A program made the translations under genes and the position numbers. The notes under the pieces are model-generated. The model searched no databases and was not told where the DNA came from. It was given only the letters and a program-made list of their open reading frames with translations. Source: a virus (lineage: Duplodnaviria > Caudoviricetes). Taken from it: a stretch of DNA of 41,838 nt. Position 1 is the first letter of the stretch. Each line of letters opens with the position of its first letter. Location: IMG/VR virus record IMGVR_UViG_3300033565_000009, positions 1-41,838 of that record; one strand, given 5' to 3'. Positions 11,396 through 26,799 of the stretch are shown one piece after another.

Positions 11396-11752
11396 ATGGA
11401 GTTGTCTGAATTTGGCCAATATATTGAGAAACTCAGAATTGAGCGTGGAATAGACAGCCGGTCAGAGTTAGCTCGGATGGCTAAAACTTCTGCAACAACT
11501 ATATCTCGGGTTATCGCAGGAAAACAAAAACCAACTCCTGAAACTCTTGGAGCTTTAGCTCCCCATCTCGGAGTTAGTTATGAACACTTAATGCAGAAGG
11601 CAGGGTATCTATTAGTTGCAGAAGAAGCATCTACATATAATTTTAAAAATAATAATACGACTTTGTATGATAAAATTGATAAATTAAGCGCAAGAGATAG
11701 GGCGGTTGTAGAAGCTCTTATCCAGGCGTTAAGTAGTAAGGGTGATGAATAA
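11396..11752 (+). CDS. CI-like repressor (XRE HTH, no S24 peptidase domain)
   Basis: HTH SRSELARMAKTSATTISRV..GK..P; directly upstream of the integrase. Confidence 0.85.
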   Translation: MELSEFGQYIEKLRIERGIDSRSELARMAKTSATTISRVIAGKQKPTPETLGALAPHLGVSYEHLMQKAGYLLVAEEASTYNFKNNNTTLYDKIDKLSARDRAVVEALIQALSSKGDE

Positions 11753-13224
11753 TGCTACGGGCAGTAGCTTATGCACGATACAGTTCTGATAATCAAAGGG
11801 CCGAATCTATTACTGCTCAATTGCGTGCTATTCACTCATATGCACTTAAAGAGTCAATTGAAATAATCAAAGAATATATCGATGAAGCCGAGACTGCCAC
11901 TTCTGATGAGCGTCCTGATTTCCAAAACATGATAAAAGAAATAGAGAAAACTAAACCAGATCTGGTTTTGGTTCATAAGCTAGATCGTTTTGCACGTGAT
12001 AGAATTGATGCTGGTCATTATCGCTGGTTGTTAAAAAAGAAAGGTGCTAGGCTTGTTGCAGTTGAACAGGACTTCGGTAACGGGCCAGAAGCTGCACTGA
12101 TGGAATCAACAGTTGAAGGTGTTGCTGAGTACTTTTCCAAAAATTTATCAAGAGAAGTAAAAAAAGGTCTTTTTGAAAATGTTATACAAGGTAAACATTG
12201 CGGAGGTTTGCCACCATTAGGTTATGATATTGATCCTGATAAAATGTATATTATAAATGAGCATGAAGCCCAAGCAATTAGAATGATATTTGATATGAAG
12301 ATACAAAATATGAATTATCAAATGATTATGGACGCACTAAATAAAGCTGGATATAGAAGCAAAAGAGGAAAAATAATTGGAAAAAATAGTCTTCATGATA
12401 TACTAAGAAACGAAAAATATATAGGTAATTATATTTATCGTAAAACATCATCATCAAATAGCAGAGTTGCTGCCGATCCATTAGCGACAGTTCGTATTGA
12501 AGGTATCATCCCACGTATTATTGATGATGAAACATTTTATAAAGCTCAGTCTATGATGGATGGTAGTAAGCAACAGCCAAGGATGAGAAGTGATACTGTT
12601 TATATTTTATCCGGTATAGCCAAATGCGGTGAGTGCGGACAGGCTATGACTGGAAGCTCTCATGTTAATCGTGGTAGGAAATATGAATACTACCGTTGTA
12701 ATAATGCAAATAGGACTGGAGGTAAATCATGTAGCAATCTATACAGGTACAAAAGATCAACACTTGAACAAGATGTAATCGAACGTACACAAGAAGCTTT
12801 AGATATTTTACGAGCTAATATTGATAATGAGATTGATGTAATTTATGAAGCAATCATCAATAAAACGGAAAGTGAAAATGCTGAACGGCAGTCATTACAA
12901 AAAGAGATTAGAAAAATCAAAATAGAAATTGATAACCTAATTAACTCTGTTGCGGCTGGTGTAGACGCTAAAATACTAGCTCCTAAAATAAATGACTTAG
13001 GAAGGAAAAAAGACGCCTTAGAGAAACGTAAAAATAGAATAGAGATTAATAATATTTCGAAAGATGTGGTGCGAGAATATTTATTAAAAATAATAAACAC
13101 TTCAATTAATCCTGAAGAACCAGTTACTTGCCGAGAAGTTTTAAAAGTATTATTGGATGAGGTTATTATTTACGATAAAAATAACATATATATCCCTCTT
13201 GAAAGATTTGGCTTAGCGCGGTAG
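11752..13224 (+). CDS. Large serine recombinase (phage integrase)
   Basis: YARYSS catalytic motif, DRFAR, recombinase domain, zinc ribbon CGECG...YYRC...C, coiled coil. Confidence 0.95.
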   Translation: MLRAVAYARYSSDNQRAESITAQLRAIHSYALKESIEIIKEYIDEAETATSDERPDFQNMIKEIEKTKPDLVLVHKLDRFARDRIDAGHYRWLLKKKGARLVAVEQDFGNGPEAALMESTVEGVAEYFSKNLSREVKKGLFENVIQGKHCGGLPPLGYDIDPDKMYIINEHEAQAIRMIFDMKIQNMNYQMIMDALNKAGYRSKRGKIIGKNSLHDILRNEKYIGNYIYRKTSSSNSRVAADPLATVRIEGIIPRIIDDETFYKAQSMMDGSKQQPRMRSDTVYILSGIAKCGECGQAMTGSSHVNRGRKYEYYRCNNANRTGGKSCSNLYRYKRSTLEQDVIERTQEALDILRANIDNEIDVIYEAIINKTESENAERQSLQKEIRKIKIEIDNLINSVAAGVDAKILAPKINDLGRKKDALEKRKNRIEINNISKDVVREYLLKIINTSINPEEPVTCREVLKVLLDEVIIYDKNNIYIPLERFGLAR

Positions 13225-14135: not shown

Positions 14136-14357
14136 ATGGTCAAGAACCGTTTAAGAGAGATTCGGCATGAATTGAAAATAAATCGTCAAAAGGAATTTGC
14201 TGAGATCCTTGGAGTTACTCAATCCCAAATAAGCCTATGGGAAACCCAGCAACAGCAGCTGCAAACTGATACATACATTAGAATCTGGAAAAAGCTTCTA
14301 CCCCTTTCCCCCGGTTTAAATTTACAAGACCTGATCGACCATGAAGACCTCGATTAA
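14136..14357 (+). CDS. XRE-family HTH protein
   Basis: NRLREIR...QKEFAEILGVTQSQISLWE. Confidence 0.85.
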   Translation: MVKNRLREIRHELKINRQKEFAEILGVTQSQISLWETQQQQLQTDTYIRIWKKLLPLSPGLNLQDLIDHEDLD

Positions 14358-14370
14358 GAGGTCTTTTTTT
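14344..14370 (+). terminator. Intrinsic terminator
   Basis: AAGACCTC-GATTAA-GAGGTCTT followed by a T run. Confidence 0.75.
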
Positions 14371-14464
14371 ATGTCTTTAAAAATTAATTTTTCGGGACAG
14401 GCAATTTAATTTCCGCACAGCATATATTGTGGTAAACCACATCAACTGAATGGAGGTATACCAC

Positions 14465-15511
14465 ATGGATCCATTAACGTTATTTTGCGCTGGGGCCACT
14501 CTCTGGACCGCCTTACACTTCATACCTGGCCGGACCAAATTGAATCAGGATGAACTTATCTTAAAGACTTGGGAGCAAACAGGAACCACCAACAAAGAAT
14601 GTCTGTTGCCGGTTAAAAAGAAAGGTGCTTGGTTCTTGCCGGCTGGTCTCTCACCCCGGGATATTGAAAAGACAATTCCGGCTTTAGCCTATCAACTGAA
14701 TGCCCATATAGAGATGGAAACACGGGGCAAGGCGGTACTGCTCCACGTACATCCCGGCCAGCTGCCACGTAAAGTACCATATACCCTCCAGGATCTTAGC
14801 AGATGCAAACTTGGCCTGGTCATGGGTCATACCTGGACGGAGGCATGCCTGACCTTTGACCTAAATGATAGTAATCCATACATTTTGACAGCCGGCGGTG
14901 TAGGGATGGGTAAATCCAACTGGCTTAATCTTGTCCTCAGGCAGATCAACGACAATTACACCCCTGACCAGGTGCAATACTTTTTAATTGATCTCAAACT
15001 AGGAGTAGAACTTGGACAATGGGCTGATTCACCTATGTGTGCAGGTACGTGCTGGGATCCGTCTACTGATCAGCTTCCGGCCATGCTTGGTTATCTGACC
15101 CGGGAAGTACGTAGGAGGATGAAGCTATTTAAAAAGCACGGTGTTTATAAGGTGGATGAATATAACCGACTTGATGTTAAGCAATTACCCTATTTGCTCC
15201 TCGTGGTGGATGAGTATGCGGAACTGAATCGTGATAAAGATGCTGAAGATAAATTGCAATCCTTGCTTCAGATCGGGCGCGCTGCAGGGCTTAGAGTTAT
15301 AATGTCTACCCAACGCCCAACGCACGACAATATCAACACTAGTATAAAAGGATTGATACCAACCAGATTATGTTTTAGCGTTGCTGACCGAGTAAATAGT
15401 GATGTCGTATTAGATCAATCTGGAGCTGAAGACTTGGGCGGAATTCCAGGGCGTGCTTTGCTTTTATCTGGGGCACGGCTGCGCGAAGTGCAAGTCATGA
15501 TCGCTTCTTAA
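14465..15511 (+). CDS. FtsK/SpoIIIE-family ATPase with N-terminal membrane anchor
   Basis: Walker A GGVGMGKS, IDLK, Walker B LLLVVDEY, GRAAG, TQRP; SD GGAGG at 14452. Confidence 0.9.
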   Translation: MDPLTLFCAGATLWTALHFIPGRTKLNQDELILKTWEQTGTTNKECLLPVKKKGAWFLPAGLSPRDIEKTIPALAYQLNAHIEMETRGKAVLLHVHPGQLPRKVPYTLQDLSRCKLGLVMGHTWTEACLTFDLNDSNPYILTAGGVGMGKSNWLNLVLRQINDNYTPDQVQYFLIDLKLGVELGQWADSPMCAGTCWDPSTDQLPAMLGYLTREVRRRMKLFKKHGVYKVDEYNRLDVKQLPYLLLVVDEYAELNRDKDAEDKLQSLLQIGRAAGLRVIMSTQRPTHDNINTSIKGLIPTRLCFSVADRVNSDVVLDQSGAEDLGGIPGRALLLSGARLREVQVMIAS

Positions 15512-15630
15512 TCATCAGCGATCCTTCCTTATTGGGGTTTTTTATTAATGGATTTATCGGTCTTTGGGCCTGTACACCTGTATATTACTGGCTATATGGT
15601 TTGCCAGTAGAAAGATATGGAGGGATATAC

Positions 15631-16239
15631 GTGGAGATCAGAGATCAGAGAGTACTGGAAGGGATAGAAAAGCATAGGTACCTGAGAGCGGACCAGGTTG
15701 CGGAATTGTATTTCCGAACTATTAAAAACAGCGATCAGAGAAAAAAGAAAGCAGCTGCCAGGCTCTTGGTGCTATACCGGTCAAAACTTGTGCAGCGCAC
15801 CAGGTACCCAGGGGATCCTTTTATTTATTTTGCCCGGGGGAATAAATACAGCCATAAACTGCAGCACTACCTTACCATCACGGATGTGCTGCTTCAGATC
15901 CTGGACCTAATACCTGCCAGTTCAAAAGTTGAGTATGAGGTTGAATACTCCCTGGGAAGCGGTATCATTGCCGACCTGGTGATCAGATACAGCAATCCAT
16001 TTCGGCAAGAGAAAAAGACGTATTATATTGAGATTGAGCTGGACAGTTCTGGCAGTATCATTGAGAAGCTGCGGAAGTATGAAGAAATTGAAATCGAGGA
16101 CAGCACAGTGGTAGTAATCGCAAAGCACCGATACACCATAGAAAAAATTCAATCCACTTTATTCACGGTGCCGATCCGCGCTATCGACATACGAGACATT
16201 CCCGGAGGATGGAATTCTGATGGAAGCAATTTGCTTTAA
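15631..16239 (+). CDS. Replication-relaxation (Replic_Relax) family protein
   Basis: Winged-helix-like N-terminus, H in LQHYL, IADL..IEIE nuclease-like motif; GTG start after GGAGG; follows FtsK. Confidence 0.75.
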   Translation: MEIRDQRVLEGIEKHRYLRADQVAELYFRTIKNSDQRKKKAAARLLVLYRSKLVQRTRYPGDPFIYFARGNKYSHKLQHYLTITDVLLQILDLIPASSKVEYEVEYSLGSGIIADLVIRYSNPFRQEKKTYYIEIELDSSGSIIEKLRKYEEIEIEDSTVVVIAKHRYTIEKIQSTLFTVPIRAIDIRDIPGGWNSDGSNLL

Positions 16240-16282
16240 ATAAAGAGGATATGTCAGGAGGAAGAAAGGAGTTGTTGTTGTA

Positions 16283-16567
16283 ATGTTTGAGATAATCTTT
16301 TTACTTTTTATCTGCGCTTGTGCATGGTTGGCACTTCAGGCTGCCAGATCTCCGCGACGTAAACGCAAGGTTAAATCCAATCGAGTGTCTATTATTGAAC
16401 AGTTATTTGGTGTACCGTTCTATTTGTGGATCTGCATGAAGCTCTTGCCATCTAAGATACCAGATGAAATGAGGGTCACCATTCAAACTGAATCAAAAAG
16501 ATCTCGTACCGAAAATACTTTGAAATACGTACAGCGTGAATCAGGCTTATGGGTACCGGCCAGGTAG
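16283..16567 (+). CDS. Small membrane protein
   Basis: Hydrophobic N-terminus followed by a basic stretch; SD AAAGGAG. Confidence 0.65.
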   Translation: MFEIIFLLFICACAWLALQAARSPRRKRKVKSNRVSIIEQLFGVPFYLWICMKLLPSKIPDEMRVTIQTESKRSRTENTLKYVQRESGLWVPAR

Positions 16568-16674
16568 GATGCAGGTAATAAGTTGGAGAAGGGCCAAGGG
16601 CGTATAATTTGCTTTGGTTCTTCCTCCTTATCCTCATTTGGTGTAAACTGGAAAATAAAAAGGAGGAATGCATT

Positions 16675-17271
16675 GTGTTTGTTATCGGCATCATATGTAT
16701 GATAATCAGTGTGGCATATATAATTAATTATCGAATTAAGAATCCTGATAAGGAAGTTAATACAAAGCATTTGGCATTCTTTGCTTTATTTATGATTATA
16801 TCCGCAGTTGGGTTTTTGTCGTCAAGTGATAACGAACCAGCTGTTAATCAAACTCAAATAGCATCAATGGAAATAACGGAATATGCAAAATACCTTGTAA
16901 ATAGTGCACTTGGCGATAAAACAAATGTGGAAAAACCTATATTTAGAAGCGCCATTAATACATCTGAATATCTTGTCATTGATATGAATGCAAACGACAA
17001 CCTGTCTAACAGCTTAACCAAAACTGGAATTTTAGCTGACTCAATTGACGTATATACTCAGGCTTTTAAAGATAGACCGGATCTGCAAGGCTTAAAGCTG
17101 GTGTGGTATTTAGACTTGGTGGATGTTAAAGGAAACACGTCAGAAGGTTCTGTTTTGTACATTTTAATCAGAAAAGAAAACGCAGCGACAATTAATTGGG
17201 ATAATATGCTTACAGATAACATACCCAAAGTAGCCGACGATTACTGGGAACATCCTTTATTCAGTAAGTAA
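16675..17271 (+). CDS. Membrane-anchored protein (2 TM plus outer domain); possible superinfection exclusion
   Basis: GTG after AAGGAGG, two hydrophobic segments, own terminator; function inferred only. Confidence 0.65.
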   Translation: MFVIGIICMIISVAYIINYRIKNPDKEVNTKHLAFFALFMIISAVGFLSSSDNEPAVNQTQIASMEITEYAKYLVNSALGDKTNVEKPIFRSAINTSEYLVIDMNANDNLSNSLTKTGILADSIDVYTQAFKDRPDLQGLKLVWYLDLVDVKGNTSEGSVLYILIRKENAATINWDNMLTDNIPKVADDYWEHPLFSK

Positions 17272-19601: not shown

Positions 19602-19615
19602 ACCTTACCCCATAT

Positions 19616-19643
19616 AAAAAGCCGCCCATCTTTGAGCGGCTTT
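19616..19643 (-). terminator. Intrinsic terminator after the tyrosine recombinase (probably bidirectional)
   Basis: AGCCGCTCA-AAGA-TGGGCGGCT followed by TTTT. Confidence 0.8.
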
Positions 19644-19647
19644 AACC

Positions 19648-20487
19648 TTAGAAATACCTCGTATAAATTTCTTTCCTCCGTGGCCCTGATAGCTGAGCGT
19701 ACAGCATTGTTGTCTCTAGTTTTTGGTGCCCAAGTAAAGTTTGAATCCCTTCCATCGGAGCCCCGTTATTTAAAAGGTGCGTAGCATATGAATGCCGTAG
19801 CTTGTGTGGATAGACATTCACCGGTACTTCAGACCTCCTGGCAACCCGCTTAATAACATATCTTAACTGGTCAATGCCCATCCGGTGCGGTTTCCGCTCA
19901 GTAACGAATAAAGCGATATCAGTATCTTTCCTTTTAGACAAATACTTTTTGAGCCAGATCGCTGCCTTGATGCTGAAATACACTTCCCTTTCCTTATTAC
20001 CCTTACCCAGTACGATACATGACCGATTATCCCAGTCAATAGCATTCCTGTTAAGTCGATGTATCTCTCCGATCCGGCAGCCGGTTGTGTACATAAATTC
20101 AATCAGAGCATGCTCCAATGGAGTTATGCATCCTTCTCTGAGTAATTCTGTATCTTCTTCACTGAGCGCTTTTGGAACACGTTGCCCGAGCTTTGGTTCT
20201 CGTAACTTTGCAGCCGGGTTCCTGGGACAATAACCTTCATCAGTTGCCCAACGAAAAAAGGCTCGAATGAAACGAATTCGTCCACCCAAGCTGGCAGGTT
20301 TAAGATGAGCGCACTTCTCAATAAGATAGCTCTTGAGATCTACCAGATTGATCTCTTCAATATCTGTCTCCCCAAAATGCCTGATCAGTAGATTAATTTG
20401 TACCCGGTATAACCTTAAAGTGGCTTGAGAATACCCCTCAATGGTTTTGTCGGCAACATAGAGCTGCCATGCTTCACTAAGTAGCAT
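19648..20487 (-). CDS. XerD-like tyrosine recombinase adjacent to the cassette array
   Basis: Core-binding N-terminal domain, TGCRIGE, GKGNKER, HKLRHSYATH, LLGH, TT.LY. Confidence 0.95.
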   Translation of the reverse strand: MLLSEAWQLYVADKTIEGYSQATLRLYRVQINLLIRHFGETDIEEINLVDLKSYLIEKCAHLKPASLGGRIRFIRAFFRWATDEGYCPRNPAAKLREPKLGQRVPKALSEEDTELLREGCITPLEHALIEFMYTTGCRIGEIHRLNRNAIDWDNRSCIVLGKGNKEREVYFSIKAAIWLKKYLSKRKDTDIALFVTERKPHRMGIDQLRYVIKRVARRSEVPVNVYPHKLRHSYATHLLNNGAPMEGIQTLLGHQKLETTMLYAQLSGPRRKEIYTRYF

Positions 20488-20529
20488 GATATGATACCTC
20501 CCGCAAGATATTTTTGTTTCCCGCAGTAG

Positions 20530-20603
20530 ATGTGTATAACAGGCTGCACCTGCGGGGGTGCTTTTCGATCAGGTAGCTAATCCGACCTAGCCTGCTTACA
20601 CAT
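20530..20603 (-). ncRNA. Structured three-way-junction leader RNA of the recombinase
   Basis: P1 AGCAGGCT/AGCCTGTT, P2 GGTCGG/CTGATC, P3 GCACC/GGTGC with loop CCCGCA complementary to two downstream TGCGGG sites. Confidence 0.6.
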
Positions 20604-20604
20604 T

Positions 20605-20633
20605 ACCATATCATTCCAATTAGGACAAGTCAA
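20605..20633 (-). promoter_or_regulatory. SigA-type promoter of the recombinase
   Basis: TTGACT-17-TATGGT with extended -10 TG. Confidence 0.65.
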
Positions 20634-20635
20634 TC

Positions 20636-20663
20636 TTCAAGTAACGCTATTCCGTTGACATAA
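20636..20663 (-). repeat. Candidate recombination site 3 (11-6-11)
   Basis: TTATGTCAACG-GAATAG-CGTTACTTGAA. Confidence 0.75.
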
Positions 20664-20711
20664 TTTAACAAAATACGCAAATATTTGACATAACGTATAC
20701 AGAAATATACG

Positions 20712-20912
20712 TCAGTCCATCTCATCCTTGGTAATACCGAACTCTTTGATAAGTTCTTTTATAACCAGGTCAAGGGCTTGCATCTGTCCCAGGAGATTAT
20801 CTTTCATGCCGTCAAAGTCTGGATCGTTGATTTCGTTCTTCAGCATTTGCCTTTTCCAGACATACCGCTTGATTATGTCTATGATTTTTCCTCTCCTGAA
20901 TGTCTCTGCCAT
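20712..20912 (-). CDS. Conserved cassette protein, copy B (66 aa)
   Basis: SD GAGGTGA before MAETF; paralogue of 21305-21505. Confidence 0.8.
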   Translation of the reverse strand: MAETFRRGKIIDIIKRYVWKRQMLKNEINDPDFDGMKDNLLGQMQALDLVIKELIKEFGITKDEMD

Positions 20913-20982
20913 CCTGATCACCTCGTTGGTTTATATACGTGATCAGAAAGGATTTTCCTTTATTATGCCGAGGTTATTGTAA

Positions 20983-21165
20983 TTAGCCCTTAAAGTTAGG
21001 ATTTACAGTTGGATATTTATCGTATCCGGTTCCTTCCCACTTGGGATCATCTTTGTACTTACCTTCTTTCCAGCATTTTACGCAACATTCGTTACTATTG
21101 AAAAAGCTGTGCTTGGGGTTTCGTTCTCCACCACAATATTTGCATTTAATTTCGGTGTCAAACAT
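20983..21165 (-). CDS. Small Cys-rich (CxxC...CxxC) cargo protein
   Basis: SD GAGGAGGTGG; CKYC and CVKC. Confidence 0.7.
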   Translation of the reverse strand: MFDTEIKCKYCGGERNPKHSFFNSNECCVKCWKEGKYKDDPKWEGTGYDKYPTVNPNFKG

Positions 21166-21228
21166 ATTTCCACCTCCTCAGATGTTATTCTGCTAAAGTA
21201 TATTCACCGTATACAAATGTATGCGTTA

Positions 21229-21256
21229 TGCAAGTAACGCTATTCCGTTGACATAA
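21229..21256 (-). repeat. Candidate recombination site 2 (11-6-11)
   Basis: TTATGTCAACG-GAATAG-CGTTACTTGCA. Confidence 0.75.
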
Positions 21257-21304
21257 TTTAACAAAATACGTAAATATTTGACAAAACGTATACAGAAATA
21301 TACG

Positions 21305-21505
21305 TCAGTCCAGTTCATCTTTGGTAATACCGAACTCTTTGACAAGCTCTTTTATAACTAGGTCAAGGGCTTGCATTTGGCCCAGGAGATTATCTTTCAT
21401 ACCATCGAAGTCTGGATCGTTGATCTCGTTCTTAAGCATTTGCCGTTTCCAGACATACCGTTTGATTATGTCTATGATTTTTCCTCTCCTGAATGTCTCT
21501 GCCAT
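21305..21505 (-). CDS. Conserved cassette protein, copy A (66 aa)
   Basis: 64/66 aa identical to copy B. Confidence 0.8.
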   Translation of the reverse strand: MAETFRRGKIIDIIKRYVWKRQMLKNEINDPDFDGMKDNLLGQMQALDLVIKELVKEFGITKDELD

Positions 21506-21520
21506 CCCGATCACCTCATG

Positions 21521-21925
21521 TTAATTATAGGTGATTAGTTCAGGATTTTGAAATATGTTTCCGATTATTTCCCATGACATTTCCATGTCGCTTCTGCAAT
21601 GCCAAAAATCTTCGTTAATCGGCTGGGGATATAAAATATACATCGGAACACCTGTTTCACGCCACTTCACCGCAAAAACTCTGTGAGATCCGTCACGCCA
21701 AACCCTCAGTATATCTCCTTCATATACTTCTCGTTTGTTTTTATCACGCAGGCCGGTAAATTGTTGTAAGACAAAACGTTCTTTAAACATATCAGGGTCT
21801 TTAATGATGTCTAAATAGAATATATTTTTAGGATTTTTACCAGGTTGTATTGCAATAAAAATCTCTCCGCCACTTAAAAACTCACACCTCCGTGTATCCC
21901 ATGCCCTAAACCTTATGTCTCGCAT
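21521..21925 (-). CDS. YopX family protein
   Basis: MR.I.FRAWD, QFTGL.DKN..EVYEGDI, EIIGNI..NPEL. Confidence 0.9.
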   Translation of the reverse strand: MRDIRFRAWDTRRCEFLSGGEIFIAIQPGKNPKNIFYLDIIKDPDMFKERFVLQQFTGLRDKNKREVYEGDILRVWRDGSHRVFAVKWRETGVPMYILYPQPINEDFWHCRSDMEMSWEIIGNIFQNPELITYN

Positions 21926-22005
21926 TCTTGCAAAATCACTCCCCTCCATGTTTATCCAAAGCCTTTTTAAGTATCGAAATATTATTGTATGCTTTCGTAT
22001 ACATA

Positions 22006-22033
22006 TTCAAGTTACGCTATTCCGTTAGCTAAA
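22006..22033 (-). repeat. Candidate recombination site 1 (11-6-11), overlapping the upstream gene's stop codon
   Basis: TTTAGCTAACG-GAATAG-CGTAACTTGAA. Confidence 0.75.
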
Positions 22034-22277
22034 TAACGGACTCTTTCACAGGGTATGGAAGCACATCTGATTCAACGACTTCTGCCCCTGTGATGCTCTG
22101 CACATATCCCGCCAGCCAGTCAAGCGTGACCTCGTTCCACGGATGGCAACAAGCAAAGCGTCCGTCTGCCAGTTCAAGCGGTTCACCCAGTAGCACCGGG
22201 CCAATGCCACCCTCAAGGTCGGGGGTGCAGGCAATTTCTGTCAGAATATCCTTATTCGGCACTATCAGTATCGCCAT
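22029..22277 (-). CDS. Hypothetical protein (distal tail region)
   Basis: SD GGAGG; 82 aa. Confidence 0.7.
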   Translation of the reverse strand: MAILIVPNKDILTEIACTPDLEGGIGPVLLGEPLELADGRFACCHPWNEVTLDWLAGYVQSITGAEVVESDVLPYPVKESVI

Positions 22278-22419
22278 AGCGTTCCCTCCAATCCTGTAAG
22301 CGTTCTTCTTTCTGTGCTTCCCGGTCTTTTTTGAGCTTCGGTCGTTTCCATGTTTTTAGGCGTTCTGTCTTGCGTTCTTCGCGGGTTTGGGCTTTTGCTA
22401 CATCCTTTATTTTAGGCAA
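22252..22419 (-). CDS. Small highly charged protein, about 55 aa (MPKIKDVAKAQTREERK...)
   Basis: Open frame bridging two genes; TTG after GGGGTG; not in the ORF track. Confidence 0.5.
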   Translation of the reverse strand: MPKIKDVAKAQTREERKTERLKTWKRPKLKKDREAQKEERLQDWRERYGDTDSAE

Positions 22420-23650
22420 CAGCAACACCCCGTTTCGCGAGTTCTTTTTTAATAGCGAGATTATTCTGTTTTAATTCATAATCAGACAAAGCCCGATTAT
22501 AAATAAGTAAAATATATATATCCCCATTCCAAAAATATCCTGCAGCCCCGATTCGGCCAATATTTAGTAAAGTGCTTACATCAGCATTAGAAGCCTGCGT
22601 CCATCTGGAATCTGAATTACCTACCTTTACTCTTAACGCATCTTTCACGGATTGTCCTGTGAAAATATTTACCGTTTCGTTAGGGGGTATGCCGGCTAAT
22701 GTAACAGAAGCACTCCCAGATTTAAGAACTACGTTAGTGTTACTTTGGTAAAACTGAACACCACTTGCCCCACCGCTTGTTAAAGAACATATGTCTCCCT
22801 CAGCGGTAATCCCTGTAGCTCTTTTAGCTGCAGTCATAATAGTCCAGTTGTATCCCAGGGCGGGGAATGCTACAGAATTAGCATAATCATCACTTCCAAA
22901 ACTCAACCCCTGGCTCGTCCATGTCGGGTCGTTGGTATCGCTGCCCGTGGTGCTGCCTAACGTGCCGTTATAAAGCGGTAATTCTCGCGATACAGTGCCG
23001 TCGAACCAGCCTGCGAAGAGTACATCACATTGGGCGGCGGTTGGCTCGTTTCCTGCTCCGAATAAGGCGGTTAGGTCGATTGCCATGACTTCTTGTATTT
23101 CTGTTATTTTTCCGTTGGCAGTGGAATTATCTGCATAAACACTAAGGATTCTCATGCTAATAGATCCAGTACCACCAGAAGTTAAAGTAACCAAAGCCCC
23201 TTTATTGTAAACTGTATTAACTGCCGGAGAAGTTACAAGTATACCCTCCTGAGTTGTCATTCCAGAAGTTGAATCAACCCATATTTTAAGAACAGAACAT
23301 GCGGAGTTAGTAACTTTAATCTTTGGTTTTATATATAATTTTTTACCAGAGACATAGGAACATATATTTGAATAACGAGCAATCGGATACGAATTGTTGC
23401 CAGTACCAGTAACAGTTAAGGTATTGTTAGAGGCAGTTAAAACAGAAGAGCCACTATAAGTATCCCACCCAGTAGTACTCTGCGAGAAGTTGCCATTCGT
23501 TATTAAATTCGATACATCTTTAGGTATCATAACCTTATTCCATAGCGTCTGTGCGTCCACATTCTGTACGAAGTCGTACCATGCAACAAGACCATTCTTC
23601 ACAATACCCGCTGGCGGTGAAGCCATTAGTAACCTTTGATTAGGCATCAT
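22412..23650 (-). CDS. Virion protein with LamG/ConA-like and carbohydrate-binding-like domains
   Basis: GLVAWYDF start, NLITNGNFS, IDLT..FG.G.EPT, GDIY..LIYNRALS..E end. Confidence 0.7.
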   Translation of the reverse strand: MMPNQRLLMASPPAGIVKNGLVAWYDFVQNVDAQTLWNKVMIPKDVSNLITNGNFSQSTTGWDTYSGSSVLTASNNTLTVTGTGNNSYPIARYSNICSYVSGKKLYIKPKIKVTNSACSVLKIWVDSTSGMTTQEGILVTSPAVNTVYNKGALVTLTSGGTGSISMRILSVYADNSTANGKITEIQEVMAIDLTALFGAGNEPTAAQCDVLFAGWFDGTVSRELPLYNGTLGSTTGSDTNDPTWTSQGLSFGSDDYANSVAFPALGYNWTIMTAAKRATGITAEGDICSLTSGGASGVQFYQSNTNVVLKSGSASVTLAGIPPNETVNIFTGQSVKDALRVKVGNSDSRWTQASNADVSTLLNIGRIGAAGYFWNGDIYILLIYNRALSDYELKQNNLAIKKELAKRGVAVA

Positions 23651-23663
23651 AAGCCATCACCCC

Positions 23664-24302
23664 CTACATCGGAACGACAAACAGATCAATTGTTTTTACC
23701 ACACTGGCAGTCGGAGTATAGGCTCCAATGGTTTCGAGGATGCCGTACAATGACGTTCCGGTCAGGGTAACGTATTTATTGATATTATCATCTTGACTAA
23801 ATATGTTATAACCAACGTCAACCGGGGTACTGATTGTGATGTATCCGCAATATTTACCCGCAGCTGCATCAGCTTCGGCAAGAGTTGTGAATGCGGCGTT
23901 ATCAGCAATCGCAGTTGGTGCTGTTTTGAATAAATGTAAACGCCAACCAGAACATCCGGACGGTACGGCAAGGTTTGTACTTGCCTTACTTGCAATTAAT
24001 TTTGCACTTGAAATTACAACCGTAGCACCTGCTGTTCCTACGCCAGCAAAGGTTAAATAATTTGGTGCGCTTGTGCTGTCTGATAAAACATCGCCAGCGG
24101 CATAGGCATCTGTTAGGTTGGGACGGGTGAAGTTCGCACTGACTTTCTTTGCAACATTACTTCCCGCTACTTGCAGACCAGCATTCTTGTTTACGATCAG
24201 TCCGTTATACAATGCCTCGATCATGTCAGCAATATTTACTGTGGTATTGTCTTCCTTAAGCCGCCGTCCAGAACCAGGTGCCATTTGTTTTATGTCACTC
24301 AT
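23664..24302 (-). CDS. Putative virion structural protein
   Basis: Ala/Thr-rich beta protein, TRP....YAAGDV motif, in the tail region. Confidence 0.6.
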   Translation of the reverse strand: MSDIKQMAPGSGRRLKEDNTTVNIADMIEALYNGLIVNKNAGLQVAGSNVAKKVSANFTRPNLTDAYAAGDVLSDSTSAPNYLTFAGVGTAGATVVISSAKLIASKASTNLAVPSGCSGWRLHLFKTAPTAIADNAAFTTLAEADAAAGKYCGYITISTPVDVGYNIFSQDDNINKYVTLTGTSLYGILETIGAYTPTASVVKTIDLFVVPM

Positions 24303-24368: not shown

Positions 24369-26799
24369 AATTAGTTTTCTTTGATGTTGGCAATGGTTTT
24401 AGTCCGTTGACTATATCCTTGAAATTCAGCTTTCCGATCCGGCCACCACTATCAACTGTATTTTCAGTAGTAAATCCTTTGTCTCCGAAAGTAAATTTGA
24501 TGCTTGTATTAACCCCGATCAAAGTTTTAGTGGCATCCGCTTCTAAGATCTCCGCTTCATCCCCTGGAATGAGTTGCGGCCGGAATGGCCCGATCAGCGT
24601 CTCGACTGCCCCTGAATTTGACATTGCCTCTGCGAGATCAGTTGCAATATCTGCCGCCTCAAGTGATGTGGTCCCGTCTAAGACTTGATGGTAATAAGTT
24701 TTCTTAGGCGGACTATTCCATCCGAGATTACTTGTGACCGGGCGCCATACCTTTACTAAAAAATCTGAAGTGTGAACACAAACGCGTCCATAAACACTGC
24801 GGTCATCTGTTACAATATCCCGAGAAAATATGTCCCGGTTCCTCTGGAACGTATATCGGCTGGGCCGAGTAAAATGACTGTCAGTTTTCTCGGCTATAAC
24901 TACTTTGCCGCTGACCTCCTCTCGGATTTGCCACCCAGGGAGATATTGAATAATTTCTTCAATGCCATCAAAAACACTTTTATTCGGTGCAAATTCCATT
25001 CCCATATACACTGTGCTGGGCTGTACATAATAGTCAGTCAGTCCAGCTGCATCCAATATTGATTTCAGCATATCTGAAACAAGCATATTGTCGAATTTGC
25101 AGGCTTCGTCAAAGGACTGGTCTTTCAGATATTTGCCGATTGAATTGCGACCGTCTACTTTCAGGGACGCAGTATTAACTTTATACTGGGTTTTATCCAC
25201 ATAAAACTTACCCATGGAGTACTCTTCAGAATCGCCAGCGCAAAAAACCAACTCAATAACCGACTGCGGCACATACGAAGGTAGTACTTCCTTCACGGGA
25301 ACGACAAGGTTTTCCCACTGCAGATAAGGATATCCATCATTTGCAGCAGAATTAATACTCCATACGGTGCTGAAATCCCACCCAGAGAAGGTGGACTGTT
25401 GCTTTAAATCAACCTCTGACTTAGACGTACCATAATAGGTGGTAGAACCAGTCACAGCATTGTAGTAAGAATTGATTACCCCTTCAGGCGACCCATAGAT
25501 ACCAGCTCCTATAAATTTACTGCCAGTTCCTAAAAAATTGCCGATAACATAACAATTAGATATATTTGCAAATTGAAATGCTACACAAATAAATTGTTCA
25601 TTAGGAGAATCGATTGATAAAATGCCATAACAATCTTCCATATTTCCGTAATTCGTTAAGCATAAGCAAATCCCGATATTATTTTCAGTGCTTTCAGAAT
25701 AAACAAATCCACGCAAACTACATTTTTTTATATAAGCATCATTGCGGTAGCAAATACCAACCATAGCTCCATCAGTTTTACCTTCTACATCGACAAGACA
25801 GTTTTCAACAACTGCATTTTCATAATCTGCGTTTCCGTTTTGTCCGGCAATTGTGACAATGGAACCACTTAAATTATTTTCACCCGTAACTCTGCAGTTT
25901 TGAATAGTACCTACTGAGCCCAGCGCAATTCCTGCGAACATTTGAGATGTATTATTGAATTCTGTTAAATTGATATTTGATAGCGTTCCTGTTACTTGTT
26001 TGAATAACAACCCGTTTAGACCGGATATATTATAATTATTCCCATTATAAGAACCGCTGAAGGGAATGTCATATTCATCACCATCAACGGCATTGATCTC
26101 AGTCCATCCGACATAACTGCTCATATCGATATTAGCCATCTGCATATAATTAGCATAAAGATCTTTTCGGACATTATATAGTTCTTCGGGTGTTCTTATT
26201 TCAATTACTATCGAGTCATCCGGCAAATCATTCACTTCATTTATGACATCTCCACCCGATGCTGACCAGGCTGAACCTGATTTATAAACATTCCAGTTAA
26301 CTTCATCTTCTACCCAATCACTTTTTGCGCATTTATAAACTTGAACGCTTTTCCCCGCTGGGGAAGCATTATAATAAGTTGAGCAATACAATCGCAATTT
26401 CGCTACAGCAACATGGCTTATTTCAGATAAAGAAAAAGATGCTATTGATCTGATAGTAGTCCCATCGGCAGATGTATTGCTAATCTTAAGACAATCTAAA
26501 TCACCTTGGTTAAAATTTGGATTGCCTTCAGCTATTGCTGAATCTTTTAAAACTTGAATTATGTTGCCACCATTTAATACAAGTTTTGGTTTACGATCCT
26601 CATCCTCATAAAGACCCTCTTTTGAGTAAAAATCCATAATTGAAGATGATGATTCGTTTTCTGTTTCAAATCTAATAATAAAATCAACGTTATCTAAACC
26701 TTCTCTTACGGCATCTTTGACATGATTAGTAACATCCCATTCCATCCATCCGAATACATAATCAGAAACAATCGCTTCTGCTACAACAGATACTGCCAC
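24367..26799 (-). CDS. Tail protein (DNRLRE-like domain, GLUG/beta-helix domain, C-terminal hub-like domain)
   Basis: AKLRLY..W.E..V.W motif, FYSKE..PKL, GLUG-like region ending GWDF..VW..YPYL, C-terminal GPFRPQL.PGD. Confidence 0.75.
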   Translation of the reverse strand: MAVSVVAEAIVSDYVFGWMEWDVTNHVKDAVREGLDNVDFIIRFETENESSSSIMDFYSKEGLYEDEDRKPKLVLNGGNIIQVLKDSAIAEGNPNFNQGDLDCLKISNTSADGTTIRSIASFSLSEISHVAVAKLRLYCSTYYNASPAGKSVQVYKCAKSDWVEDEVNWNVYKSGSAWSASGGDVINEVNDLPDDSIVIEIRTPEELYNVRKDLYANYMQMANIDMSSYVGWTEINAVDGDEYDIPFSGSYNGNNYNISGLNGLLFKQVTGTLSNINLTEFNNTSQMFAGIALGSVGTIQNCRVTGENNLSGSIVTIAGQNGNADYENAVVENCLVDVEGKTDGAMVGICYRNDAYIKKCSLRGFVYSESTENNIGICLCLTNYGNMEDCYGILSIDSPNEQFICVAFQFANISNCYVIGNFLGTGSKFIGAGIYGSPEGVINSYYNAVTGSTTYYGTSKSEVDLKQQSTFSGWDFSTVWSINSAANDGYPYLQWENLVVPVKEVLPSYVPQSVIELVFCAGDSEEYSMGKFYVDKTQYKVNTASLKVDGRNSIGKYLKDQSFDEACKFDNMLVSDMLKSILDAAGLTDYYVQPSTVYMGMEFAPNKSVFDGIEEIIQYLPGWQIREEVSGKVVIAEKTDSHFTRPSRYTFQRNRDIFSRDIVTDDRSVYGRVCVHTSDFLVKVWRPVTSNLGWNSPPKKTYYHQVLDGTTSLEAADIATDLAEAMSNSGAVETLIGPFRPQLIPGDEAEILEADATKTLIGVNTSIKFTFGDKGFTTENTVDSGGRIGKLNFKDIVNGLKPLPTSKKTN

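Follow-up and report, generated by a model that had tools for sequence, protein, structure and literature searches.

An array of small gene units in the genome of a tailed phage (Duplodnaviria; Caudoviricetes; IMG/VR virus record IMGVR_UViG_3300033565_000009) is described here from the 41,838 nucleotides (nt) of that record, the whole stretch analysed, hereafter called the window. The array lies between the virion genes and the lysis genes of a temperate phage record, on the minus strand, and adjoins the gene for a tyrosine recombinase of 279 amino acids (aa). This region is real and mobile-looking. The reading to which we give a probability of about two in three is that its repeats are crossover sites of this Xer-like recombinase, and that the units between them are mini-elements inserted successively into the outer site of a two-site system by which virion modules are swapped.

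Three sites of 28 nt, all A-like (outer type), were recognised by sequence comparison: S1 (distal, 22006-22033), S2 (middle, 21229-21256) and S3 (proximal, 20636-20663). Their 19-nt word, AACGGAATAGCGTWACTTG, has exactly three matches in the whole window, all on the minus strand (20638, 21231 and 22008), and still three when three mismatches are permitted, against an expectation of 0.02 and with none of 100 shuffles reaching that number. All of them are direct, no inverted copy being found in the window, and the spacing between them is 593 and 777 nt. Thus, the two units of these sizes delimited by three direct repeats, as read in an initial annotation of this DNA, are borne out; the dif-like 11-6-11 geometry given there to the sites is correct in the window but is not a rule of the family, in which 4-7 nt separate the inner C/G bases.

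Unit 1 (21246-22022, 777 bp) carries as cargo a YopX-family gene (21521-21949; PF09643, E 5e-19), and unit 2 (20653-21245, 593 bp) a Cys-rich open reading frame (ORF) of 60 aa (20983-21165), for which a homologue search found nothing. To this variable cargo each unit adds, in agreement with the first description, a copy of the same 66-aa gene (copy 1, 21305-21505, in unit 1; copy 2, 20712-20912, in unit 2), placed within a repeated block of 287 nt with 94% identity. A comparison of the two copies shows 15 codon differences, of which 13 are synonymous and 2 conservative, and the GC content is 38% in each unit, in comparison with 43% in the whole window; the array is therefore neither an assembly artefact nor a fresh duplication. 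Neither unit encodes a recombinase, and the core is identical at both ends. The left arm of S1 overlaps the stop codon (22029) that closes the final gene of the virion module, and the right arm of S3 is followed by a promoter-like site with a TG extension, kept in relatives (TTGACT-17-TATGGT, 20605-20633, read from 20633). The left arm of the distal site, TTTAGCTAACG, is complementary at 8 of 11 positions to the right arm of the proximal site, CGTTACTTGAA, and, as had been pointed out, removal of both units rebuilds a more symmetric site while keeping the upstream stop and the promoter. In S3, the left arm would be element-derived and the right arm phage-derived. Searches of Rfam and of the INPHARED phages gave no match for the array region and the array DNA, respectively. 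The exact 19-nt word has one match in viral contigs, due to chance; a 17-nt word has 28, of which at least three adjoin a recombinase, several lie behind virion genes without a recombinase, and many are chance.

A third unit is known from another metagenome (locus L168), beside a recombinase 65% identical to that of the window. There, an outer site is accompanied by an unrelated 65-aa cargo, a 66-aa homologue (48% identical) and the same hairpin, which covers the ribosome-binding site of the 66-aa gene in unit 1 (21506-21540) and has its counterpart in unit 2 at about 20913-20948. The L168 unit ends in a site with the same 7-nt core as its outer site, a core unlike that of the window, so that here too both ends agree; this unit likewise lacks a recombinase. 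A 16-nt box, G(C/T)ATA-H-N4-G(C/T)ATA-H, is found twice in L168 and four times in the window, always at the unit ends (unit 1, 21987-22002 at the 5' end and 21288-21303 at the 3' end; unit 2, 21209-21224 and 20695-20710, respectively). Each unit is likely a self-regulated non-autonomous mini-element consisting of cargo, 66-aa gene and a box at both ends, and the stacking of such elements at one site, advanced originally as an alternative, is the best fit for the two units, with L168 as a parallel. A YopX remnant in unit 2 was considered and given up, since the hairpin recurs in L168, where YopX is absent.

The 66-aa protein is predicted to form a helical hairpin (pLDDT 92), and Pfam, PDB sequence and fold searches gave no family or fold match, the fold hits being generic (best Z 8.5) and the atlas hits below 0.9. 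In a Syntrophomonas metagenome-assembled genome, successive accession numbers belong to a 66-aa homologue and a homologue of the recombinase, which from this order would be neighbours. In Bacillaceae, where the family has 105 representatives and is present in 20 of 121 genomes, 21 loci were fetched and the box, defined from the six copies mentioned above, was then sought in them. It was found at all 21, in 38 places versus 0.56 in shuffles, and in the 19 orientable loci it stands just upstream of the gene, mostly over the promoter. These loci have no A or B sites, and the gene lies ahead of metabolic genes. Taking this co-occurrence into account, the protein is likely an autoregulator with the box as its operator.

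In the same Bacillaceae loci (L308-L328), the family is unannotated, shares a TFRRG motif and has in many members a His-rich N-tail; the gene comes first, ahead of genes that, as read from the sequence, resemble those for O-methyltransferases, monooxygenases, nitroreductases or ABC transporters, and one or two GTATAC-N4-GTATAC boxes overlie its promoter. It is likely an undescribed repressor family. CsoR/RcnR repressors resemble it in being small helical hairpins, some with a His-rich N-tail, and in a palindromic ATAC...GTAT-type box over their own promoter; this is a lead only. Pfam, PDB sequence and fold searches did not match the 66-aa protein to these repressors, and the centre of its box is 4 nt. 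Neither this reading nor a Spo0E-like one found a supporting hit. A short member of the TFRRG family with a box on each side (L329, 1278-1710; G268:C22) lies at the edge of an element, presumably Tn554-like, that interrupts radC and contains large recombinase-like ORFs. In the window, a degenerate copy of the element's left arm is found at 20676-20700 and 21269-21293, 30 nt upstream of S2 and S3, and in these same intervals a TTGACA on the plus strand precedes each 3' box by four bases, as in the Bacillaceae promoters; it is possibly an antisense promoter into the 66-aa gene.

The recombinase gene (19648-20487, minus strand) encodes, according to a domain search, only core-binding and catalytic domains. 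R138, K162, H228, R231, H254 and Y263 are invariant in 45 aligned homologues taken from the 120 listed. The protein is colinear with XerD and XerA without any insertion, and only residues 199-265 match IntI4. Its best model matches are XerC, XerD and XerA, with 200 and 183 bits for the XerC and XerD models against cut-offs of 335 and 330, and a XerA score that is also under its cut-off; the integron integrase model TIGR02249 gives a split match of 94 bits against a cut-off of 265. The arm-binding domain is absent, as expected from 279 aa and two domains, the gene is not found at the attachment position of a prophage end, and the phage has a separate 490-aa serine recombinase (serine integrase, 11752-13224). 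On these scores, the enzyme is Xer-like and neither IntI nor XerC/D, which agrees with the earlier view of a non-IntI recombinase with a dif-like site of its own. No match at 1e-60 was found in the INPHARED phages, and the gene is present in two of 125 Syntrophomonas-order genomes. Its closest genome match (L085, G002) comes from an assembly labelled Saccharibacteria, yet the phage DNA groups with Clostridia-type phages and the assembly is probably mis-binned.

The link between enzyme and site comes from the relatives. Three scans gave 240 locus rows, from which 152 distinct loci (at least 47% identity, upstream DNA present) were examined. In 75 Bacillales-type genome loci, a site matrix finds 5.6 sites per 10 kb, and at least four sites are present in 46 of the 64 loci of 8 kb or more; since the matrix was trained on array loci that are also counted, these counts owe their weight to the controls. 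Thus, 59 loci with more distant recombinases (below 47% identity) have 0.09 sites per 10 kb, which is the shuffle rate. With a strict site pattern, three Bacillales genomes gave 6, 59 and 31 matches, which lie in clusters; neither the reversed control nor two further genomes gave any. The site therefore appears to track the enzyme clade and to belong to the recombinase.

The Bacillales arrays contain two kinds of site in alternation, type A (core GGTG.C or GGAAA.C) and type B (core GCA.G). A is followed by B within 120 nt in 77 of 114 cases, about 58 nt apart and with a terminator-like hairpin between them, while B is followed by A at gene distance (within 120 nt in only 2 of 130). The gene is co-oriented with the site in 88 of 103 B-to-A units, and 32 of 491 neighbouring sites are opposite, with orientation assigned by a core-composition rule. 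The A-to-B slot is often occupied by the recombinase gene, of which the genomes with arrays have several copies. In a quick tree of 116 rows with an unresolved backbone, the array groups fall among phage rows and the array label requires two changes.

Neighbouring genes change at the site, as the initial annotation had anticipated for variable arrays upstream of homologous recombinases. From the site onward, L010 and L011 show 100% identity for 1010 nt, and blastn finds no match between them in the 400 nt upstream; L306 has the site and promoter in common with them and a third upstream gene. Four Bacillus mycoides plasmids have a block, 97.5-98.4% identical, that starts at the core GGGCGC behind three different upstream neighbours. 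When a 16.8-kb Neobacillus array was compared with 90 genomes of the genus, the matches broke into pieces, and 87 of the 227 ends of these matches are no more than 20 nt away from a site, in comparison with 5% of all positions and 15% of intergenic ones, several junctions falling inside the core (120 rows among the matches listed, with 97 further matches outside them; the self match and multi-copy intron rows were dropped). L011 also provides a natural empty allele, in which genes homologous to the 58-aa and 82-aa ones that precede the array in the window are followed by one site, the promoter, the recombinase and the lysis genes. The empty site foreseen originally is thus present in a relative. 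Other inserts, with no clear second site, stand between the outer site and the recombinase promoter in L007 (6995-7870), L023 (7300-7830) and L043 (6758-7700). In L253, L254, L263, L264 and L266 the outer site lies directly behind a virion-type gene without a recombinase within 4 kb, and these sites could possibly be used in trans.

The second site of the system escaped the initial annotation, which also overlooked the structured recombinase leader and the four boxes of 16 bp. This site is a degenerate inner-type (B) site (24150-24175, minus strand), recognised with the site matrix and the relatives, that lies in frame (Q-V-A-G-S) inside a 212-aa gene (23664-24302). Phage relatives likewise have a B-type site in frame (LTGS or VAGS) within the upstream virion-associated gene. 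When the matrix was restricted to chromosomal B sites, its best hit was an in-frame (L/V)(T/S/A)G in 20 of 38 phage loci, the window included (24170, VAGS, with a low score). In a codon test the inner sites gave 21 of 25 versus 16 of 198, a result that is partly circular because these sites were hand-picked. Across 32 hand-picked inner sites, 10 of 496 pairs share at least 45% identity upstream only (at most 26% downstream), two share it downstream only and none on both sides; the window has 77% upstream and 20% downstream identity with L045, and 60% and 17% with L023. Such mosaic flanks indicate that the approximately 2.15 kb from 24170 to S1 are a variable module bounded by B and A, in the same arrangement as a unit of the chromosomal arrays. 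This virion-associated module (22029-24160, minus strand) comprises the 3' part of the 212-aa gene, a 412-aa gene, a 58-aa ORF and an 82-aa gene; a Pfam search of these genes gave no firm family, and from their position they would encode virion parts. No site-like reverse copies were found in the phage loci.

In L010 (6228-7653), L033 (upstream) and L248, the upstream modules end in genes that look like targets of diversity-generating retroelements, and in L248 a reverse-transcriptase-like ORF precedes the site. Two diversification systems may therefore meet at the virion module. At 24400-24411, in the 3' end of an 810-aa gene, 11 of 12 positions match the left arm plus core of S2 and S3, probably by chance.

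Taking the chemistry of tyrosine recombinases as a basis, the following steps are proposed. The recombinase would bind the imperfect palindromic arms on duplex DNA and exchange strands in the 6-8 bp centre. Crossovers at the inner (B) and outer (A) sites, whose cores differ, would replace the virion module between phage genomes or through a circle, preserving the reading frame at L/V-T/S/A-G-S. A circle containing cargo, the 66-aa gene and one site with a matching core would integrate at the outer site, an event that would duplicate the core and disrupt neither the upstream stop codon nor the recombinase promoter, and whose repetition would build the array. The 66-aa protein would bind the boxes and repress the element's own promoter. 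In Bacillales, the same enzyme family would have settled on chromosomes and plasmids, where it would shuffle gene and terminator modules.

Several points weigh against this proposal, to which the training overlap of the site matrix and the circularity of the codon test, already mentioned, also belong. The empty allele is known from the relative L011 and not from this phage, and we infer the circles and the activity of the enzyme from sequence. A cross-genus breakpoint test was little enriched (10 of 110 versus 5%) and was dominated by insertion sequences. The inner site is not the best hit in 18 of 38 phage loci, and a clear outer site lies within 420 nt of the recombinase in just 16 of 38. 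The inner site of the window scores 4.4, and between the left arms contributed by the elements and the right arms only 5-6 of 11 positions agree; parts of the system may therefore be inactive. The mini-elements are known as DNA from three units in all, two in the window and one in L168, where the downstream site is degenerate. Among viral contigs, a hairpin-pattern scan for further units gave 0 hits, and a site-plus-box scan gave 12 hits, none with a 66-aa gene or a recombinase; an alignment search for the 66-aa gene in them confirmed none, and the gene was found in none of 125 Syntrophomonas-order genomes. That the 66-aa protein binds DNA is deduced from co-occurrence.

The first of the two options of the initial annotation was a phage-borne platform for gene capture. 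In a general form of it, the proximal site would be attI-like, any gene with one site could be added, and the 66-aa gene would be incidental or a directionality factor. Three direct sites with the same core beside a recombinase would suit it, as would the true long arrays of Bacillales and L009, where two outer sites with the same core (33-2070) surround a 2-kb virion module that also holds an inner in-frame site. However, in most of the phage relatives the outer site is single and an array is lacking, and what they have as a second site is the inner one that brackets the virion module; besides the window, a second outer-type site is found upstream in phages only in L009, L013 and L168. Moreover, the same regulator, hairpin and boxes recur in all three phage units, and the Bacillaceae 66-aa homologues stand away from sites and before metabolic genes, which fits a regulator better than a recombination factor. 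As a general account of the phage loci, gene capture is not supported, and for the window we regard it as unlikely.

Rather less probable is that the outer site is a loxP- or dif-like resolution site, used for phage dimers or circularisation and hijacked by mini-elements, with the virion mosaic produced by homologous or microhomology exchange at a conserved linker. Cre-type systems usually have this layout, with one site immediately before an arm-less XerD-like gene (PMC10250229), and the best model matches of the recombinase are those of XerC/D/A. It would be left to explain why the recombinase follows the LTGS-bearing module at many different genome positions, why a matrix trained on chromosomal sites picks the inner word, and why homologues occur in arrays and in several copies per genome, of which dimer resolution has no need.

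The array could also be a relic, formed by tandem duplication of a block of site plus gene and subsequent replacement of the cargo, with a recombinase no longer active here. The 94% identity of the 287-nt block and the weak left arms of S2 and S3 would be consistent with such an origin, but between the copies there are 13 synonymous and 2 conservative codon differences, an independent phage (L168) has the same unit with another core, the unit ends fall in the site core and the enzyme is intact, so that we consider it quite improbable. The least probable alternative, that the sites are folded single-stranded substrates analogous to attC, with an A-spacer-B pair forming the hairpin, could appeal to arms resembling the consensus RYYYAAC/GTTRRRY, to the variable core length and to the distance of about 58 nt between A and B in 77 of 114 cases, but it founders on the absence of covariation across the junction (p 0.43 and 0.50, n=77 array junctions), on window junctions that fold like shuffles (z -0.8 to -2.0, the latter reached by one strand), on a spacer that is a terminator-like hairpin with a T run, and on the missing IntI insertion, and a circle-junction covariation of p 0.044, one of six tests, was given no weight.

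Among known systems, the mini-elements resemble integrative mobile elements exploiting Xer (IMEX) such as TLC and CTX, which are small, have no integrase of their own, insert at a Xer-type site and stack in tandem. The units of the window and of L168 share with them the lack of a recombinase and the identical core at both ends. They differ in their target, which is the site of a phage recombinase in the phage late region rather than chromosomal dif, and in a shared small gene that looks autoregulatory.

Integrons (PMC8618304) are alike in the dedicated tyrosine recombinase beside tandem co-oriented units (here 88 of 103 array units follow the site orientation), with one site between neighbours, in the inferred circles and in chromosomal arrays of accessory genes. 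The insertion in the catalytic domain of IntI is essential for integron function (PMC8138268). This insertion is absent here and no attC-like folding was found; two alternating site types are found instead, the recombinase gene lies inside the array and is co-oriented with it, and one site is in frame inside a virion gene. The pdif (XerCD-dif) modules of Acinetobacter plasmids (PMC9771954) resemble the arrays in that genes flanked by short dif-like sites are shuffled between replicons, but they depend on host XerC/XerD and inverse sites, in contrast to the direct sites (32 of 491 neighbours opposite) and the element-encoded enzyme, below the XerC/D cut-offs, found here. The Rin shufflon of Bifidobacterium prophages has an arm-less XerD-like recombinase by a virion gene, with one site within the gene and a second direct site past its 3' end; Rin acts there by inversion between spare tips kept locally, at an asymmetric word of 11 bp (PMC6109161). 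Neither spare tips nor inverted sites are present here, the sites are palindromic, of 26-28 bp and with two core types, and the exchange appears to be intergenomic. Engineered recombinase-mediated cassette exchange with heterospecific sites likewise places an exchangeable segment between two direct sites whose cores differ; the system proposed here would be natural, its cores vary within one genome and its core selectivity is putative. A literature search found no description of the system, most subscription papers being outside its reach.

A wider proposal, to which we give even odds, is that Bacillota possess their own counterpart of integrons: one Xer-like clade with two core-specific site types performing natural cassette exchange, by which phages trade virion tips in frame and which Bacillales would have adopted at least twice in the tree, with arrays running to hundreds of genes, and sub-kb elements that carry a member of an undescribed repressor family would live on it as parasites. 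If the enzyme acts in this way, it would offer a mechanism for the pile-up of accessory genes in clustered Bacillus-type arrays that integron detectors do not call, and another for the replacement of virion tip modules at a fixed codon in Clostridia-type phages. What is new is the regulator, the mini-elements and the link between Bacillales arrays and phage tip modules. With the enzyme, both types of site and two small units together in 4.5 kb, the window makes a compact test system; a recombinase of this small size whose natural sites are core-specific could serve as a tool, and the 66-aa family, for which an operator is predicted, is a new regulator open to testing.

The messenger RNA of the recombinase begins with a structured leader (20488-20612, minus strand), recognised in the alignment of relatives, with alternative pairings over the ribosome-binding site. 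Compensatory changes occur in 14 of 29 pairs of its conserved structure, exceeding all 500 shuffles and the slid controls, although the structure was derived from the same alignment. An Rfam search of the leader gave no match. Since it is a conserved RNA structure without a match there, expression of the recombinase is probably gated. The stem has an inner hairpin whose loop is often self-complementary (AGCT, GATC, CATG or CGCG) in the window, L002, L006, L008, L011, L015, L023, L024, L038 and others; a C-rich word is complementary to two downstream copies, one of them over the ribosome-binding site, and the -10 region is complementary to the start-codon region. Other relatives have in place of the leader a divergent helix-turn-helix (HTH) gene with operator repeats.

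After the recombinase stop, a hairpin and a T run (19613-19645, minus strand) form a likely terminator. A B-like word 47 nt past the gene was rejected as a part of the system, as it is not conserved in the other phage-type loci examined. Further on, between the lysis genes and the serine integrase, the plus strand carries HTH, FtsK/SpoIIIE, replication-relaxation and membrane-protein genes (14136-17271).

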